Of a DNA stretch of 64,000 bases, positions 33,090-56,018 are shown piece by piece. The position numbers and the translations under genes were made by a program. Each line of letters opens with the position of its first letter. Within the stretch, counting starts at the first letter, position 1. The stretch is from Saccostrea echinata (Eukaryota): positions 9,114,001-9,178,000 of the forward strand of contig NW_026889785.1 of assembly GCF_033153115.1 (NCBI RefSeq), given 5' to 3'. The notes below the pieces were generated by a model. The model did no database searches, had not been told where the DNA came from, and saw only the letters and a program-made list of their open reading frames with translations.

Positions 33090-33317
33090 TTGAGTAAGCA
33101 AACAACGTTGTTCGCATTATCAAAAGTTCTGACGGGAATAAGAGGAAAAAGGTCAGTAGTGTGTCAGATAACGGAAGTATTAATAAAGGTGAAAAGAATG
33201 ATCATACCAAAAGAAAAAGAAAGTTTCAAGAGAGTTGGAGAGAAAGATTCCCGTGGGTGGAACTGGAAGTCCAGTCTCAATCTACAAGTGATACTGATAA
33301 CGGTGACTTGATGTATT
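33090..33317 (+). pseudogene. hAT transposase N-terminal part
   Basis: Reads RKFQESWRERFPWVEL...DLMY up to the TSD; continues in frame as CSYCR after 56018. Confidence 0.85.
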
Positions 33318-33508
33318 AGTAGTAAGGGGGACAGAGTACAGTCAGTATACAGTCACGATGACGTCATGGGGTTTTCCAGACCCCGCCCACATAGGTCATA
33401 ATATGGGTCACAGTCAAGGGGTGAGTCTACAGTCAATGACGTCATAGGTATCTAAGTGCAAAGAGTGAGTCTACAGTCAATGACCTCACGAGGTAGTTCA
33501 CAGTCAAG
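33318..33508 (+). repeat. Polinton left TIR
   Basis: Reverse complement of 55822-56012. Confidence 0.96.
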
Positions 33509-33942: not shown

Positions 33943-34170
33943 ATGTTAAAAATTCAACGAGGGAGTGGATGCATAAAAAAACTTAAATTTAATGATCATG
34001 TACAAGTAATTTTAATTCCATATGAAGATCGAAAGGGGATTTGGATGGAATTTGCCATAGATAGAGCTCATTTTAAGAGGAGAGTTCAACAAACGGAAAA
34101 TATTTTATTACCTGTGCTTCTTCAGAAGTTCAAACAATGTACACTTTACAGTCAAAAGAACGAAAAATAG
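33943..34170 (+). CDS. GADD34/ICP34.5/DP71L-like PP1-binding eIF2alpha phosphatase adaptor (75 aa)
   Basis: KKLKF (RVxF), VQVI, RKGIWMEFAIDRAHFKRRV..TENILLPVL match the PPP1R15 C-terminal core. Confidence 0.85.
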   Translation: MLKIQRGSGCIKKLKFNDHVQVILIPYEDRKGIWMEFAIDRAHFKRRVQQTENILLPVLLQKFKQCTLYSQKNEK

Positions 34171-35035: not shown

Positions 35036-36019
35036 ATGGAGCAAAAACATCAAGACTTGATTAAGGCAAACTACTCGACATTGGTGAAGAAGATGATGGC
35101 TGTTCCTGTTGCGGGACATCTTTACGCCTCAAACATAATTACCGATGAAATGAGACAACAGATAGACGCTGAGAAAACCAGCTATGACAAAAACAGAAAA
35201 TTGATCAGCTTCATTTTACGTCGAGGTTCGAGAGCTTTTATGGGACTTAGAATGGCATTAATGAAAGCCAATCAAGCTGACTTATCCCGACTCCTAATGA
35301 ATAAGGATGATGACACAAAGTCTGAGTACGAAAAGAAGCTGGACATGGCAAGATCATTAGTCGTTAATACTAAAGAAAGAGGAGGTTCCAGAAATCAATC
35401 AAAGAAAGTCGATCATCAACAGTCTCAGGAGCCAAGATGTAGGATAAGTTTGGATGACTTTAATGACCTATTCCTCACCGTCATGCCTTTTAAGGGGGAG
35501 ATTTACGTCCACATCCGTCATTTCACAGAATCGCATGGTCGTTTCATTGCCACCAAGAAGGGAGTTACCTTTCCTTTAGCCCGTTGGTTAAAGTTTGAAT
35601 CTCTCTTACCAGATATTCAAGACTACATTGACAATACTGGAAAAGAGGATGAAGAAGCACAGTGGCATGTTGGTGGAGGTGTGTTCGTTTCGTTATCACC
35701 AGGCTATCCGACAGTGGACATAAGACACTTTTGGAAGCCAGACAATGTTCAAGAACCTATACCTACAAGGAAAGGTGTAACTCTAAACAGAAACAAATTT
35801 GCCAGACTTATCGATGTCATCGGGGAGATGCATGAATGTGTTCCAGAACTAAAAGACATTGAACTTTGCATGCTCAGCGAGTCTCATCAAAATCAGCTTG
35901 GAATGTTAAGCTGCCCGGAATGTACCCCCTTTGGCTACGATCCACAAGACAATATATCAATGGAATGTAACGCCGGTGATTTACAAGACAGGGAAACCAT
36001 TGAAAATGATCTTGAATGA
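35036..36019 (+). CDS. CARD + two PC4-like ssDNA-binding domains + C-H-CxxC finger (327 aa)
   Basis: N-terminal death-fold pattern (LIKANYSTLVKKM..HLYASNIITDEMRQQI..KNRKLISFILRRGSRAF..LRMAL..QADLSRLL); PC4 signatures FKGEIYVHIRHF..TKKGVTF..W and VDIRHFW..PTRKGVTL. Confidence 0.82.
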   Translation: MEQKHQDLIKANYSTLVKKMMAVPVAGHLYASNIITDEMRQQIDAEKTSYDKNRKLISFILRRGSRAFMGLRMALMKANQADLSRLLMNKDDDTKSEYEKKLDMARSLVVNTKERGGSRNQSKKVDHQQSQEPRCRISLDDFNDLFLTVMPFKGEIYVHIRHFTESHGRFIATKKGVTFPLARWLKFESLLPDIQDYIDNTGKEDEEAQWHVGGGVFVSLSPGYPTVDIRHFWKPDNVQEPIPTRKGVTLNRNKFARLIDVIGEMHECVPELKDIELCMLSESHQNQLGMLSCPECTPFGYDPQDNISMECNAGDLQDRETIENDLE

Positions 36020-47402: not shown

Positions 47403-50400
47403 CTAAAATTTCAGTTGTCGCTTGGACCTAGTGTTTCGAGCTACGCATTCATCTTCTTCCTCAACATCTGGGGAGGTGGTGACAGAGGATAGGGGAGTGA
47501 TCAGGGGTCTTCGGCTTTCATTGGGGGATGGAGGGGTACTGGTTCTTGGAGGCGGGTTGATGCCATCATCATCATTAAAAGTGGTCTGATCATCATCATC
47601 ATCATCATTGTGAATGGTGGTTGGGGTGGAGGGGTGAATGGTAGATAGGTCAGGATCAGGGGATGTGGAGGAGGAGGAAGAGTGTTCATCATCAATGGAT
47701 TGGGGGGGTGGTGTAGGCACATCATCATCCTCTCTCACACAGTTCTCACACTTTTTCTTAAGCCACTTTTTTAACAGCAGAATTGCAACCGCAAAGGTGG
47801 TTGCAACCGCCCATGCTAAGAGCCCTATAAAAAATCAACTGAAGTATAATTATTAATATTCTTATAAATTTTTAGGTAGTCTTTATATTATATCTTCTTC
47901 TTCTTCGTTTTCCAAATCAAACTGGAAAGATTGCCTGTAATTATTTGGCTTATAAATATGATTCACTTTTTTATTAGACTTCTTACGCTTAAAATGACAT
48001 TGTTTTCTACTGAATAACAAAATACAAATTAATATCAAAATACAGACACCCAATGTAATACAATTGACCACATTATTACCAAGAGCTTTATCTGAGAGTG
48101 TCTCCCCATCTTCCAACGGTTTATTTAACTTCGCCAACAGTTTATTCAGAATTTCCTGTCCTGATTCTAAAAAAAATTAAAATGTAAGATTTCAATATGT
48201 CAACGTTGCTCTATAATTATTATCGTTCTTCAAAGTTAAATCTAAAGTATTTATAATCCATAATTACTTTCAATGGTTACTTTCAACACTTAGCGATTCA
48301 CATACCATCTCATTTTGTGGATAATCAGTAACTAAAATCAGTTACTAGTAATTCATTTAAAAGTATTTACCTGTTTTAACAGTGATTCCTGCTGTTGTTA
48401 CGGTTGATGTTGTTTCTAAAAAAATTAAGGATCATGAACAGTTTATTATAATTACACTTTTACTACAACTTTTACTACAAAATGTCACGCGACGTAGCAT
48501 AAGTCAAGCTGACCTCCTAGATCATGAGGCTTTTCATTCATACCTGCTTCATTAGCTGTCGACACAGGTTGAGTGATTATTGACGTGGCTGATGATGATG
48601 TCTCTATGTAAAAAAACAATTATAATATTATTAAATATCAGAGAGATATTATTTTCAAACTACAGTCTACATGTCTTTCAATTAATTTACATTTTAAAAA
48701 ATAAATAAAAAGATTGTTTACATTTCCACTTCTACAGATAGGACAAAAGTCAAGTAATTAATGATAATAATTCAAACGTATATACCTGTTTGTCCGGACT
48801 TGGTCAGCATAGTTGTCTCTATAAAAAAAACTATTACTCATTAAATCTTACCATTGTAAAACAACATGTTATTGGACATATACAATTATTTTATTTATTT
48901 ATTTGTTTATTTTTGCATTTCTTTAAAAAACCGAAATCAAAGGAATGTTTACAGTACATTACTACTGAGGAGGGAATTTATCAATAATGTCACGTGATGT
49001 AGCATAAGTCACGCCTCTGGGAAAAAGCTGACCTCCTATATCACGTGGCTTTTCATTCATACCTGCTTGACTAGTTGTAGACAGAAGTGTGGGTTTAGTG
49101 ATCAATGGCGTAGTCTCTGGTGTCTCTGAAAAAAAAAACAATTATAATATTATTAAACATGCGAGTATTATTTTAAACTACAGTTTATCTTAATCACACA
49201 CATATACTACATGTCTTTCAATTAATTTATTTAAAAAATAAATAAAAAGATTGTTTACATTACCACTTCTACAGATAGAACAAAAGTCAAGTAATTAACG
49301 ATATTAATTCAAACGTATATACCTGTTTGTCCGGACTTGGTCAGCATAGTTGTCTCTATAAAAAAAACTATTACTCATTAAATCTTACCATTGTAAAACA
49401 ACATGTTATTGGACATATACAATTATTTTATTTATTTGCTTATTTTTGCATTTCTTTAAAAACCGAAATCAAAGGAATGTTTACAGTACATTACTACTGA
49501 GGAGGGAATTTATCAATAATGTCACGTGATGTAGCATAAGTCACGCCTCTGGGAAAAAGCTGACCTCCTAGATCACGTGGCTTTTCATTCATACCTGCTT
49601 GAGCTGTAGACAGAAGTGTGGGTTTAGTGATCAATGGCGTAGTCTCTGATGTCTCTATGAAAAAACAATTATAATATTATTAAACGTGTGAGATATTATT
49701 TTAAACTACAGTTTTTCTTAATCACACACATATACTACATGTCTTTCAATTAATTTACATTTTAAAAATAAATAAAAGGATTCTTTTACAATAGTACTAG
49801 GGTACTACTATTACTACTACTACACACTACATATATAACAATGTCACATATGTAGCAACCATGATCGATACTTTTTAATAATAAATTTGGAGGGTATGTA
49901 TACCTGATTGTCCGATCGTGGTATCACTATGCTTAGGTGGTGAAGGACTGAATGTTGCCTCTATAAAAAAATTATGAACTAAAAACATTATCCTTGAAAA
50001 AACAACAGATTATTATAATGACACATACTACAGTTTACTTTATGTTTAAAAGAAGAGGGGTGTTAATGTGTGTCTTTGAACAGAAATATGACGTAACACA
50101 AGACACACACACTTCACGGTGTCACGTGTCGGGGTAGCTTGCTACCGTTTCATTTATTTGAAATAAAAAATATAGTTCATAATTTCATTGCAAAGTCTCA
50201 TCTTCATGTGGTGGATTCGGGAATTACAGGGTTTACACGCACACCCCTTTTAAGCAAAAAAAAAAAAAAAAAGAAATCAATAATATCGCGTGGCTTAGCA
50301 ATTGAGCCACACGTTTGTGTTATGCGACTATTCAGTGTGGAGGTTACTTGATTACAACTTTTTTTTATATAATACCTACAACCGATTACTATATATTATT

Positions 50401-50934
50401 TAAAAAAATAAAAAAGGATCATTCAGCAACACACTGTGGCCTTCATATGTTATATTCAGGAACTACCGTAATAAGAAAGGGGTCGATTTACACATGTGCA
50501 CACATCTTTAGCAGAAAAATCAATAATACCACGTGACGTAGCATAAGCCACTTGTAAAGTGTTGACGGGGGACTGGTTTTGAAATGATACTTCTTTATGT
50601 GGCGGATTCAGGATTTACTGTTCCCAAAAAAAAGGGGGGGGGGTGTTGGAGTCGAAATCTAATTTACATGCGTTTTAAATTTTGTAAAAATGCATAATTT
50701 GCACTTACCACAAATACGACCACGAAGATCTCGAATCTTTATCATGGCAGGGTCCCCGAAGACAATCACCCGGTTAAGTCCACAGGATGTCACAAACACT
50801 TCACGAACTTCCGTCACGTTCACCCGGACTTCTCGACAGTCCGGCCAGTAACATGTCAACACCCTCCTGTCTACAGGTGCATTTTGCACCGATACAATAC
50901 ATGTCATAATGATTACGAGCGTTCTGTCGTCCAT
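47403..50934 (-). CDS. Spliced type I membrane mucin-stalk protein; exons 50934-50709, 49960-49904, 49654-49595, 49355-49323, 49125-49063, 48818-48786, 48603-48544, 48415-48371, then 48166-47883 or 48166-48080 + 47824-47403
   Basis: All junctions are GT-AG phase 1 and all internal exons are multiples of 3; signal peptide, 4-Cys head, Thr/Ser/Pro-rich stalk, TM followed by basic residues. Confidence 0.78.
48610..49780. repeat. ~535-bp tandem duplication that duplicates an exon pair
   Basis: Identical 33-nt exons at 48786 and 49323; near-identical exons at 49063 and 49595 with shared intron sequence. Confidence 0.85.
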
Positions 50935-52759
50935 CTTGCAATTACACACTTTGAACTGGTCATATGTGCACGTGATAAAAAAGCGCGCGAAGTACCCCGG
51001 TCAACATCCCCCCGACGTATAGAATAACACCATTTATCACTTTAATGATTTTTTTGTTTAAGAGTGTCTGTTTAGAAACTATCACATAAATGATGTATGG
51101 TAAACAATTGTCAACAGAAAATGTTTTGTTTATTTGGAGGGGAGGGATGGGGGATAAGGTAATGACACAGTTTATAACCTTATAGATAACCTTTTTTTTG
51201 GTACAGGTCAGGGATCAGCTTATCTAAGTCATGTTTTACAACCTAATTCAGAATTCTTAACTAAAAAATTTTTTTCTAATCCATAAAGTTTTATTTTGAA
51301 GTCATGTGTCAAAATGATGTAGATTCTGTGTATTTATTAATAAAAATAAAAGTATGAGCTGTTTTCCGTGGTCAATACTCTTACCTTCTCCTTCGTACGT
51401 ATACATGTATGTTATATATGTTTATATATGTCATGTACCATTTACATGGATTTGAGTGAATAAATTGAAATGAATTAAATTGTGAGCTTTTAAAATAAAT
51501 AATAACTTTTTTATATTTCTTAACTTTAAGATGAATAACTATAACTAATATTTTATCTGAAACTTAATCCAATTTAAGAACTCCAGTTATACATACAACA
51601 TCGCTCGATCGTGATATGGAATCGTCGATTGATGAATTGTGATATTGAAAGTGGCTGTACTTTTTTCAGCTCTTTTTTTACATAAATTCTAATTTTGATT
51701 GATCGGGAGTTGATCAAAATTGTTATGGTGTGTATGTTAATAATAATTGATTATTAGATTAATAAGGTTTTAGAAGATAAGTCAACTCGAAGAAGGATAA
51801 ATACTAATTTATGTTTGGCGCAATTTTCAAGGCTAAACTAGACAAACTTTTTTTTTCTGAACACTCGGGTATTGATGAACTTGAGAGTTACAGTGGAGAC
51901 GCGTGATAGTTTGGGCGCAATTTCCAAGGCTAAATTGACATACTTTTTTTCTTTAACACACTCATGCAGGTATAGATAAACTTGTATCCTTGGGAGTTAC
52001 ACAAGAGACGCGTGATAGTTTTGGCGCATTTTCTTGCTGGATATTAAAATGAAATTTTACAACATAAAGACAAAAATAGAGAAACAACGATTAATTTAAT
52101 TGCAGAATAGATTAATTCAAATTCATTTCAAAAAAATGTAATAATAGACATTACAAGACCAACATCACATTTCCTTACAATTTCTCCGTTTTGAAATTAA
52201 TAATCTTTATTTATATGTTAAATGACTTTTTATGCCTTTTCTGAGCTTCAACATATATCTGAGATATTGTCTGGTTTAATAACCCCAGTTAAATACAACA
52301 TCGCTCGATCATAATATGAAATTGTCGATTGATGGATTGTGATTTGGGAAATAAATGAATTTATTCGGGTCTTTTTAAAATAAATTTTAATTGTTATTGA
52401 TCAAGAGTTTATTAAAATTATGTTGTCTTTAGTTAAATTTTTGCATTGAGAAGTTTTAGAAAATAAGCCAATCCGTAGAAGGATAAATGCTACGCAACAG
52501 ACGCATGTCAGTTTTGGCGCAATTTTCAACCATGCTGACTTGACATGAACGTTAATACCTTTTTAGGACTTTCTCAATGTTGACCCCTCAAAAAGGGACA
52601 TTTAGCCCCCATATCGACCTTTGTAAAATCATGATTTAGATTCCCACCCAAAAGCGAACACCTATAAATACGTGATGTTTCCGTCACTCTACCATCAGTC
52701 GAATAATTACCATTATAAACTTAAGACAATCCTCCTCCTCCTCCTCCTCCTCCAACATA

Positions 52760-54753
52760 ATGGCGCAGAAATATCTAGACATGATGTAAGTGTATTTTTC
52801 CTATTTCAATTTTAAAATTTTGTAAAACTAATAATATATGTATCTTAAATGTTAAAATAATAAAGCATTAAATCAAATTTAATTTTAAAAAAATCCAATC
52901 TTTTGTGATCATCTTTGATAATATATTATATAAATACCCCCTTATATATTTTGTTATATTTTTTAAACATTAATTTAGGTTTTAAAAATGTTAATGTTAT
53001 ATTATTTTTTTAAAAAAAAGGGATCAGGAAAAGGCAAGAACATTTAAGGATTTTGAGGACGAATGGGTGGCATTAGGAGAGGAACTCTGCCTTAATGCAT
53101 TTCAACCAGGGTAAGTTGAATGCTAAGAAAATTGAGTATAAATTCTACAAAAATAATACAAAAATAAAATTACAATATTTTTAAATAAGAGATATATTAC
53201 TATTTGAAATAAGTTAAATGTATTTTCTATAATTACATAAGAAAACCCCACTTTTTTAATATAAAACCTAACATTGATATTGATATAGAAATTCTCCTAA
53301 AGAAGAAAACACCCAGAGCCAACCCATCTCTCGAAAAAGACATTTATCCGAAACGGAGGATTCCTACATTTTAAATCAAAGGTATGTTTTATTTTTATGA
53401 ATTTCTTTAACAATTATTTAATATTATGTTAACACATAATTGTTTATATGTTATACCATATTCAAACATTTCGTTTTGAGACTTACTATACATGCATTAC
53501 CTCAAATTTCAACTAGGACTTGACGTAGCATTGTGAGTTTGTAAATATTTGATTTATCTGCAGAAGACTAAAGCAACAAAAGAGAACAGATGACGATCAA
53601 CAAAAGAGAAGGGATGACGATAGCATAATCACCAANNNNNNNNNNNNNNNNNNNNNNNNNNNNNNNNNNNNNNNNNNNNNNNNNNNNNNNNNNNNNNNNN
53701 NNNNNNNNNNNNNNNNNNNNNNNNNNNNNNNNNNNNNNNNNNNNNNNNNNNNNNNNNNNNNNNNNNNNNTTTAAATTTTTATTGATATACTATGGTACAT
53801 AGTATACATATAATACAAGCGAAATAAATTTCCAACTTTTGAATGTGGCATATAATAATAGCTGTTATTACTTTATTAAATTTTGGAAAAAAAAATTAGT
53901 AGTTATCTTTCCGGTTTTTTTTTTTTTGGTATTCAGAAAAAGGGACCCTTTAAGATTTAAAAAACTGGAGGAGAGGATAGGAGAAGACGGAACTCCCGGG
54001 TGTTGGTCCTCAGAGGGACTAAAGGCAGTAGCGACAATTACCCGGTACTCGCCCCAGTCTCCGGAATGCAGCGCCGCTGCGACTAGTACTGGGTTCTTGC
54101 CCCAGTCGCCGCCCCAGTCACTGGATTGCAGCACCAACGCGACAATTACCGGGTACTCGCCCCAGTCGCCGGAATGCACCGCATTAACCTCGGAGGGACT
54201 CAAGGCAGTAGCGACAATTACCCGGTACTCACCCCAGTCGCCGGAATGCACCGCATTAACCTCGGAGGGACTCAAGGCAGTAGCGACAATTACCCGGTAC
54301 TTACCCAAGTCGCCGGAATGCAGCGCCGCCGCGACTAGTACTGGGTTCTCGCCCCAGTCGCCGTCCCAGTCACTGGATTGCAGCACCAACGCGACAATTA
54401 CCGGGTACTCGCCCCAGTCGCCCGAATTCAACACCAACGCGACAATTACCGGGTACTCACCCCAGTCGCCGGATTGCAGCACCAACGCGACAATTACCGG
54501 GTACTCGCCCCAGTCGCCCGAATTCAACACCGCCGCGGCAAAGGGTGGTTACTTGACCCAATCACCCGGGCAGTCTAACACTACACCTGTGACCAGTTTG
54601 GATTTCTTAAAACGTGTAGTTGGCGGTGCCTTCCCCCTTCATAGGGAATTGGATGCCCTGAATGAGTTGGTCGACAGCATGAGAGTCGACCTGTTGCAGA
54701 CATCCATGCTGCTTAATTATGTTAAAGATTTTTTAAAGAGTTATAAATTTTAA
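52760..54753 (+). CDS. Spliced protein with YSPQSP repeats; exons 52760-52785, 53021-53110, 53289-53381, 53564-(gap), 53937-54753
   Basis: TATA 52663 and TCAGT 52695; all visible junctions are GT-AG phase 2; last exon has 6 exact YSPQSP plus 4 variants and a helical C-terminus. Confidence 0.7.
53636..53769. other. Assembly gap (N run)
   Basis: 134 N. Confidence 1.
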
Positions 54754-55821: not shown

Positions 55822-56012
55822 CTTGACTGTGAACTACCTCGTGAGGTCATTGACTGTAGACTCACTCTTTGCACTTAGATACCTATGACGTCATTGACTG
55901 TAGACTCACCCCTTGACTGTGACCCATATTATGACCTATGTGGGCGGGGTCTGGAAAACCCCATGACGTCATCGTGACTGTATACTGACTGTACTCTGTC
56001 CCCCTTACTACT
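55822..56012 (-). repeat. Polinton right TIR
   Basis: Reverse complement of 33318-33508; ends ACTACT. Confidence 0.96.
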
Positions 56013-56018
56013 TGTATT

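Follow-up and report, generated by a model that had tools for sequence, protein, structure and literature searches.

The 64,000-nt stretch of Saccostrea echinata DNA analyzed here (contig NW_026889785.1, positions 9,114,001 to 9,178,000, forward strand; referred to below as the window) contains a complete Polinton of 22.7 kb at window positions 33318-56012. This element houses a ten-exon gene on the minus strand (47403-50934), the product of which is predicted to be a type-I membrane glycoprotein with a mucin-like stalk. The gene is a hypervariable cassette that is swapped between near-identical elements, the main feature overlooked by an earlier note made from the sequence of this stretch. 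Its relatives occupy a fixed slot in sibling Polintons and are spliced; their N-terminal heads fall into deep classes, and motifs in the transmembrane (TM) segment and the cytoplasmic tail are conserved. We are close to certain that the gene, its architecture, and its cassette behavior are real.

The coding sequence amounts to 1086 nt and 361 codons (332 if exon 9 is omitted). Every internal border reads AG..GT and lies in phase 1, and all ten exons are open. The features of the gene are as follows (X1 and X4 are sequencing runs described below).

50709-50934, minus strand: exon 1, 226 nt, predicted signal peptide and a four-Cys head of ~54 aa, modeled as all-beta, with one N-glycosylation sequon; phase-1 donor.
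49904-49960, minus strand: exon 2, 57 nt, symmetric phase 1, stalk; matching junction in Magallana gigas models P0016 and P0052.
49595-49654, minus strand: exon 3, 60 nt, stalk; AG..GT, open frame.
49323-49355, minus strand: exon 4, 33 nt, stalk; an RNA-contig joint coincides with its donor but could equally belong to exon 6, whose sequence is identical.
49063-49125, minus strand: exon 5, 63 nt, stalk; tandem duplicate of exon 3.
48786-48818, minus strand: exon 6, 33 nt, stalk; tandem duplicate of exon 4.
48544-48603, minus strand: exon 7, 60 nt, stalk; X4 joints at both borders.
48371-48415, minus strand: exon 8, 45 nt, stalk; an X4 joint coincides with the acceptor and an X1 joint with the donor.
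48080-48166, minus strand: exon 9, 87 nt, symmetric phase 1, juxtamembrane leucine-rich segment; joints 48166/48371 (X1) and 47823/48079 (X4).
47403-47824, minus strand: exon 10, 422 nt, predicted TM segment of 17 residues, basic stop-transfer sequence, two Cys, tail rich in D, P, S, and T with conserved motifs, stop codon.
47265-47322, minus strand: candidate polyadenylation hexamers starting at 47322 and 47270; pattern match only, with an X4 contig extending to 47294.

The start codon lies in an AAGATGG context, residues 6-16 are hydrophobic, the four Cys fall in the mature part, and the donor of exon 1 reads GTAAGT. Eight exons are symmetric in phase 1, and the stalk micro-exons account for 351 of the 1086 nt of coding sequence (32%). 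Serine and threonine occupy 51 of the 117 stalk codons (44%), from which O-glycosylation is predicted. Judged by hydropathy and composition, the product combines the features of a membrane mucin: signal peptide, ectodomain rich in serine and threonine (S/T), single TM segment, and cytoplasmic tail, the last being ~115 residues long and encoded by exon 10. GC content is 47% in exons and 28% in introns, and exons 3-4 and 5-6 represent a tandem duplication of ~535 bp. A symmetric-exon scanner, with a size threshold above both 33-nt exons, made six calls (five S/T-rich) on the minus strand of the gene region and none on the plus strand. Block shuffling, repeated 200 times, produced no S/T-rich call, and at most one call was made in each of 26 spans lying outside the element.

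The earlier note had correctly described exon 1 with its signal-like N terminus and four-Cys head, the seven symmetric phase-1 micro-exons (57, 60, 33, 63, 33, 60, and 45 nt) with their peptides, and a terminal TM exon, which at 47824-47403 begins with a hydrophobic segment. Its eight coding blocks and TM exon stand, but the 87-nt exon 9, which is kept in two siblings, had been missed. The terminal exon also encodes a tail of ~115 aa, and the model has 361 codons instead of the proposed 286 aa. An additional 39-nt exon at 50505-50467, with two more Cys, was dropped because the closest sibling conserves neither its donor nor its sequence.

For evidence of splicing, contigs of related alleles from four of 24 listed sequencing runs (X1, X2, X4, and X14) were compared with the gene. 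X4 contigs contain the joints 47823/48079 (intron 9) and 48415/48544 (intron 7), and X1 contigs, from a different study, contain 48166/48371 (intron 8). A further X4 joint, 48603/49323, represents either intron 6 or a skip of exons 5-6, the ambiguity arising because exons 4 and 6 are identical. All four joints read CT..AC on the forward strand, as GT-AG introns do on the minus strand. Introns 1 and 2 are backed only by M. gigas models in which a head 94% identical to that of sibling L018 runs directly into matching stalk exons. Junction reads, together with splice sites and frame kept in siblings, were what the earlier note had staked its gene on; spliced joints were present in RNA contigs of related alleles, and the siblings keep both splice sites and frame. 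Several observations count against applying this evidence to the gene in full. The junctions come from related alleles and not from transcripts of this exact copy, the RNA nature of X4 is a guess, and X1 contigs extend over introns as well. Among the RNA-contig joints listed, none falls in introns 1-5, and none of those listed for runs X2 (which resembles DNA) and X14 is canonical.

Stalk length demonstrably changes by tandem exon duplication. Among close copies, L052 and L054 have three and five exons of 105-108 nt, respectively, and L039 and L040 have two and one 84-nt exon. Thus, the variation in stalk length that the earlier note had proposed is directly visible, though as exon-intron duplication; the exon skipping it had invoked is supported only indirectly, by the ambiguous joint and by two of eight isoform models of a C. 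gigas homologue that lack one 34-aa repeat. These models, among which a 3-residue donor shift also occurs, are NCBI predictions of a kind that can be misled by near-identical exons.

The gene belongs to a family with a fixed position. The head gave at least 24 matches in the genome, where searches scored the best 24 candidates only. At 12 of 20 head loci PolB lies downstream on the same strand, one locus has capsid fragments instead, and seven have no core gene within 9 kb downstream. When both sides were considered, five of the 20 short-head loci lacked a core gene within ~9 kb; in two of these the head contains a stop, and a third is truncated. Elements whose capsids are closest have, in the same place, not this short head but a longer head with six Cys, and the two forms are homologous (hhalign probability 95%, E 2e-8). 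Slot stretches were then taken from 32 further close-capsid elements out of 97 capsid matches, two of them shifted to cover a known match. The head profile matched 27 of the 32 just upstream of PolB, 15 of these being in the profile by construction. No match to the profile was found in L095, L103, L107, L109, or L111, of which L107 still has stalk and TM exons. In a more distant capsid family the head was present in one of eight stretches. The gene is not a one-off capture; it has resided in this oyster Polinton family for a long time and has diversified deeply there.

Further observations were made on these loci. Most of the 97 capsid matches sit on contigs C5, C6, C33, and C36 and form at least three families, at ~90%, ~50%, and ~40% identity. 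In L116, L117, and L118, from the more distant capsid family, a TM exon also lies upstream of PolB; the L116 head belongs to the same family but is broken, and the first exon of L118 is Cys-rich and unrelated to the head family. L037 (C33 near 33.62 Mb) has an intact head and one large stalk exon, with no Polinton core gene within ~9 kb on each side. A Saccostrea cucullata protein matches its head at 94% identity, and the locus may be a remnant or a domesticated copy. In both closest siblings (L009:6581-7010 and L012:6954-7382) the tail exon is frameshifted at a C-run, which may be real decay or a homopolymer error.

The head varies independently of the element that carries it. Among 17 elements whose major capsid proteins are 86-99% identical, 134 of the 136 head pairs nevertheless fall below 50% identity (rho 0.01), and capsid genes that are 99.5% identical in DNA accompany heads at 35-48%. 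For the minor-capsid candidate, 13 of 14 pairs that are at least 97% identical have heads at 20-48%, with a weak overall rho of 0.19. The 17 elements, all from one genome, carry ~15 head classes. In the wider survey of slots, several classes are present in three to five copies. Comparison of L084 with L082 revealed how such differences look at the DNA level: the flanks are 98% (terminal side) and 95% (PolB side) identical, and nothing can be aligned over the 4.6 kb between them. The two elements differ by a swapped whole cassette. A C. gigas protein combines an L085-like head with an L088/L106-like tail, and therefore modules shuffle too.

Within classes, the head is under purifying selection. 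The proportions of synonymous (pS) and nonsynonymous (pN) differences were 0.76 and 0.06 for the pair that includes the window copy and 0.066 and 0.029 for six other pairs pooled (P = 0.008). When the gene was compared with a sibling (L008/L009/L018 comparison), its exons differed at 15 of 23 (head), 6 of 9, 3 of 7, and 16 of 59 four-fold sites; core genes differed at 0-4% of such sites, and introns differed by 5-11%. The excess in the head persisted for AT and GC sites taken separately, and the effect was only about twofold in other within-class pairs and in the PolB intron. Intron homogenization around old alleles and recoding to escape small RNAs are two candidate causes of the excess.

Several features of the gene and protein are conserved. 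The terminal Cys and the phase-1 donor are present in 16 of 16 extracted head exons, six Cys are invariant in the 15 long heads, and four are common to both head forms. The TM segment has 17 residues in 16 of 20 terminal exons, with a Trp invariant in the 15 that were aligned. Among 20 tails, which are those recognized by the scanner and not every copy, motifs resembling TRSK (15 of 20), RxL (16 of 20), and proline-dileucine (14 of 20) all exceeded shuffled tails, in which the maxima were 3 for TRSK-like and 5 for RxL-like motifs. Each tail has two to eight S/T-P sites. We take these motifs to resemble chromatin-binding, cyclin-docking, and sorting signals.

Structure models of two heads (mean pLDDT 80.7 and 81.5) predict a small all-beta domain for both forms. 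No fold match was found in PDB, BFVD, or a wide VIA search (best Z scores 2.7 and 2.6), which implies neither a new nor a different fold. Pfam, PDB sequences, and the ESM Atlas returned nothing usable for the head sequence, and whole-protein ESM Atlas matches gave mucin-like leads below 0.9. On these comparisons, the head is of no known family. A link to GPIb and leucine-rich repeats (LRR), hinted at by matches with E values above 1, was rejected; hhalign scores against LRRNT and the first repeat (9.9-12.8) were within those of 60 column shuffles (maximum, 14.6).

All named homologues that were found are oyster proteins, and oyster annotations label members as host "mucin-2-like" or uncharacterized genes. 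Seven heads from Magallana or Saccostrea databases are each nearest to one class of this genome, at 67-94% identity. Two orphan heads that were tested nest, with weak support, among Polinton-slot heads; the head tree is short and mostly weakly supported, and no direction of transfer was drawn from it. A tail-profile search, which was crowded and weak, recovered one C. gigas protein only. No host donor gene was found among the best 24 candidates scored in genome searches, no donor outside the family was found among 41 representative matches, and no capsid relatives were found in a viral contig collection. The DNA-level capture from a host that had been suggested by the earlier note is therefore not supported as a recent event for a gene so long established and diversified in this Polinton family; an ancient capture is possible.

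The carrier element has the AGTAGT-type inverted-repeat ends and 6-bp target duplication of a Polinton, and the placement of the gene inside one agrees with the earlier note. Its landmarks are as follows.

33318-33508, strand not applicable: left terminal inverted repeat, beginning AGTAGT; 6-bp target duplication at 33312-33317.
55822-56012, strand not applicable: right terminal inverted repeat; its 191 nt match the complement of the left repeat at 100%; target duplication at 56013-56018.
41631-46340, minus strand: PolB gene, two exons with one phase-1 intron (~43370-43236); fixed downstream neighbor that defines the slot.

The core set of PolB, integrase, packaging ATPase, and double-jelly-roll capsid protein was recovered by Pfam matches, with PF03175 (protein-primed PolB) and PF00665 (retroviral-type integrase) above cutoff and A32 packaging ATPase (E 0.001) and double-jelly-roll capsid (E 0.003) below it. 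The open reading frames (ORFs) at 39658 and 37405 had no Pfam match and, by position, are presumably the maturation protease and minor capsid protein. No fusogen-sized or fiber-like ORF was found among the 43 ATG-initiated ORFs of at least 45 aa in the element. Rfam had zero matches over 46300-53600, and a bacterial promoter scan, irrelevant to a Polinton gene, was empty.

Neighboring features were noted as well. Four tandem copies of ~130 nt each lie at 46456-46940, between the 3' end of the mucin-stalk gene and the start of PolB. A 75-aa ORF at 33943-34170 (plus strand) matches PF10488 (PP1-binding, GADD34/ICP34.5-like) above cutoff and likely counters translation shut-off. At 35036-36019 (plus strand), a CARD domain is fused to two PC4 domains, with 98% and 82% identity in two siblings. 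Another spliced gene at 52762-54752 (plus strand), with donors at 52785, 53110, and 53381 and acceptors near 53021, 53289, 53564, and 53937, is conserved in sibling L010 and contains an internal stretch of N; repeats in its last exon match the RNA polymerase II C-terminal heptad (PF05001) barely above cutoff, and its product is a possible mimic of that domain. Outside the element, a 376-aa ORF with a Cys-rich C terminus at 12616-13746 (plus strand) presumably resembles a DDE transposase.

The contrast between a variable outer part and a conserved inner part suggests that the head meets a variable host partner, and that the TM segment and tail meet fixed cell machinery. We tentatively favor, at somewhat less than even odds, a swappable Polinton glycoprotein with an adenovirus-E3-like role that binds a variable host surface molecule. 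The stalk would lift the head above the glycocalyx, where the Cys-bonded domain would bind a polymorphic host receptor or lectin, and the conserved TM segment and tail would direct the complex along the secretory and endosomal pathways. Host recognition would thereby be blunted on cells in which the element is active; rare head classes would be favored, and recombination between conserved flanks would keep many classes circulating. This role is preferred because the element has no fusogen, carries other likely antidefense genes (CARD and the PP1-binding GADD34-like ORF), and has a precedent in adenoviruses. PMC13437282 describes adenovirus E3 as highly variable, with evolution of species D driven by recombination, and E3/49K as a glycosylated type-I protein. 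The Polinton gene shares with E3 CR1 proteins a type-I membrane glycoprotein design (here predicted), a place in a variable accessory region of a nonenveloped virus related to Polintons, and variation exchanged by recombination. It differs in its mucin-like stalk of separate exons and its residence in an integrated element, and its head gave no CR1/Ig match. E3 CR1 proteins are heavily N-glycosylated and end in short tails that bear LL and YxxPhi signals, which is not the pattern here: E3/49K has 14 N-sequons and a tail of 19 residues, compared to one ectodomain sequon and ~115 residues in the Polinton protein.

The following points tell against an E3-like role. Excess amino acid change was not seen within head classes, and because of this, diversifying selection is inferred from class depth alone. 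The enriched tail motifs were defined after inspection of the sequences, and sorting motifs of the canonical acidic dileucine and tyrosine types show no enrichment (2 of 20 tails each). A 17-residue TM segment is more typical of endoplasmic reticulum (ER) or Golgi proteins than of plasma membrane proteins. No CR1/Ig-like domain appeared in the Pfam, PDB-sequence, or fold listings for the head, an absence that is not an exclusion. Finally, the many head classes within one genome suit an interference mechanism at least equally well.

Such a mechanism, the main alternative, would be an Env-like attachment and interference module, which is possible although less probable. Here, the protein would be the receptor binder of membrane-wrapped particles, integrated copies would block reentry by their own class, and a new class would permit reinvasion. 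The number of classes on near-identical capsid backbones and the lack of a fiber-like ORF agree with this, and the pairing of each Magallana or Saccostrea head with one class of this genome is as expected for spread between hosts, although cross-genus sharing could also be old polymorphism. According to PMC9967133, gamma-type Env proteins place a variable receptor-binding domain on a proline-rich region, and nonfusogenic Envs still interfere. The Polinton protein parallels them in its variable apical domain on a low-complexity spacer, its TM anchor, and many specificities on similar backbones. However, it has no fusion subunit or homology to Env, and exons 9-10 supply only a 28-aa segment, the TM segment, and the tail. 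Nematode Mavericks have been proposed to be enveloped (10.1101/2022.07.12.499685). On the other hand, the element is without a fusogen, the viral contig collection has no capsid relative, and several classes occur in three to five copies. Head class does not follow either capsid protein, which makes exclusion through capsid recognition unlikely. The decoy-receptor and superinfection-exclusion roles named in the earlier note are possible. The most far-reaching form of this explanation, in which oyster Polintons are circulating, fusogen-free, membrane-wrapped double-jelly-roll viruses whose exchangeable mucin-stalk protein, with a head of undescribed family, sets entry specificity, whose integrated copies exclude their own class in the manner of retroviral interference groups, and which maintain dozens of classes across oyster genera, is doubtful.

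It is improbable that the protein acts chiefly as an intracellular membrane factor in egress or cell cycle control, although a role of the tail inside the cell may be true alongside the E3-like explanation. The model for such a factor is the adenovirus death protein; binding of cyclin-CDK or chromatin by the RxL-like and TRSK-like tail motifs would take place at the nuclear envelope or the Golgi. The short TM segment with its invariant Trp, the juxtamembrane Cys, the basic C terminus, and the frequent tail motifs and S/T-P sites are compatible with this. However, a folded lumenal head in many classes is left unexplained, the motif meanings are presumed, and a literature search for TRSK with an acidic patch was without result.

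Two further explanations are very unlikely. In the first, the gene would be passive cargo, acquired as DNA from a host mucin gene and of no use to the element. This would account for nine spliceosomal introns and for the five head loci without a core gene nearby, and nematode Mavericks carry intron-containing host cargo (10.1101/2022.07.12.499685). It conflicts with the slot and orientation fixed in most siblings, purifying selection, whole-cassette exchange, the nesting (weakly supported) of both orphan heads, and the failure to find an outside donor in 41 representative matches. A plain glycan shield that masks cell or particle with the stalk as its working part, as the earlier note had suggested, is slightly less likely still; stalk composition and length differences between copies fit it, but the stalk has only ~117 residues, some copies with few detected stalk exons retain head, TM segment, and tail, and a folded, class-specific head with Cys kept under purifying selection would be left unexplained.

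Similarities to other systems are partial. Nematode Maverick cargo (10.1101/2022.07.12.499685) likewise includes intron-bearing genes in a poorly conserved region between terminal repeat and core, and MFUS-1 has a signal peptide and a single TM segment. That cargo consists of proteases and kinases, in contrast to one small-headed family with many divergent classes and no known donor, and MFUS-1 is a conserved 866-aa gB-like fusogen with 85% median identity (10.1101/2023.08.22.554363). Schistosome micro-exon genes and the SmPoMuc polymorphic mucins share a signal peptide, small symmetric exons, and variation in repeat-exon number, and SmPoMuc has a host-interface role against mollusc immune receptors (PMC4015677). 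Micro-exons make up as much as 75% of their coding sequence, compared to 32% in exons of 33-63 nt here, and the Polinton gene is viral, with a head modeled as folded and a long tail. Adintovirus PLA2X, GasderminX, and cupiennin-like genes are also membrane-related accessory genes of animal Polintons, but they encode lytic proteins, and the accessible text of PMC8502044 showed no spliced type-I protein. Related work includes 10.1101/2024.03.25.586562, 10.1101/2023.10.06.561300, and PMC11071308. No description of such a gene in Polintons was found among the papers listed in literature searches, which covered mainly the main text of openly accessible papers; the supplementary gene maps of PMC8502044 may be relevant to how new the gene is.

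Type-I accessory glycoproteins of nonenveloped relatives and intron-bearing Maverick cargo are already known. A variable viral accessory glycoprotein cassette is of a known type, and the head family is without a known match. Exchange of a variable surface protein between near-identical capsid backbones is the pattern of virus-host interfaces, and the predicted protein bears on two questions about animal Polintons: whether they are spread as viruses, and by what means they encounter host cells. Its head, of 54-75 residues, offers a concrete handle that could be expressed alone in a search for ligands. Surveys based on ORFs overlook the gene. Since oyster annotations list members of the family as host mucin genes, some variable oyster mucins may be viral.

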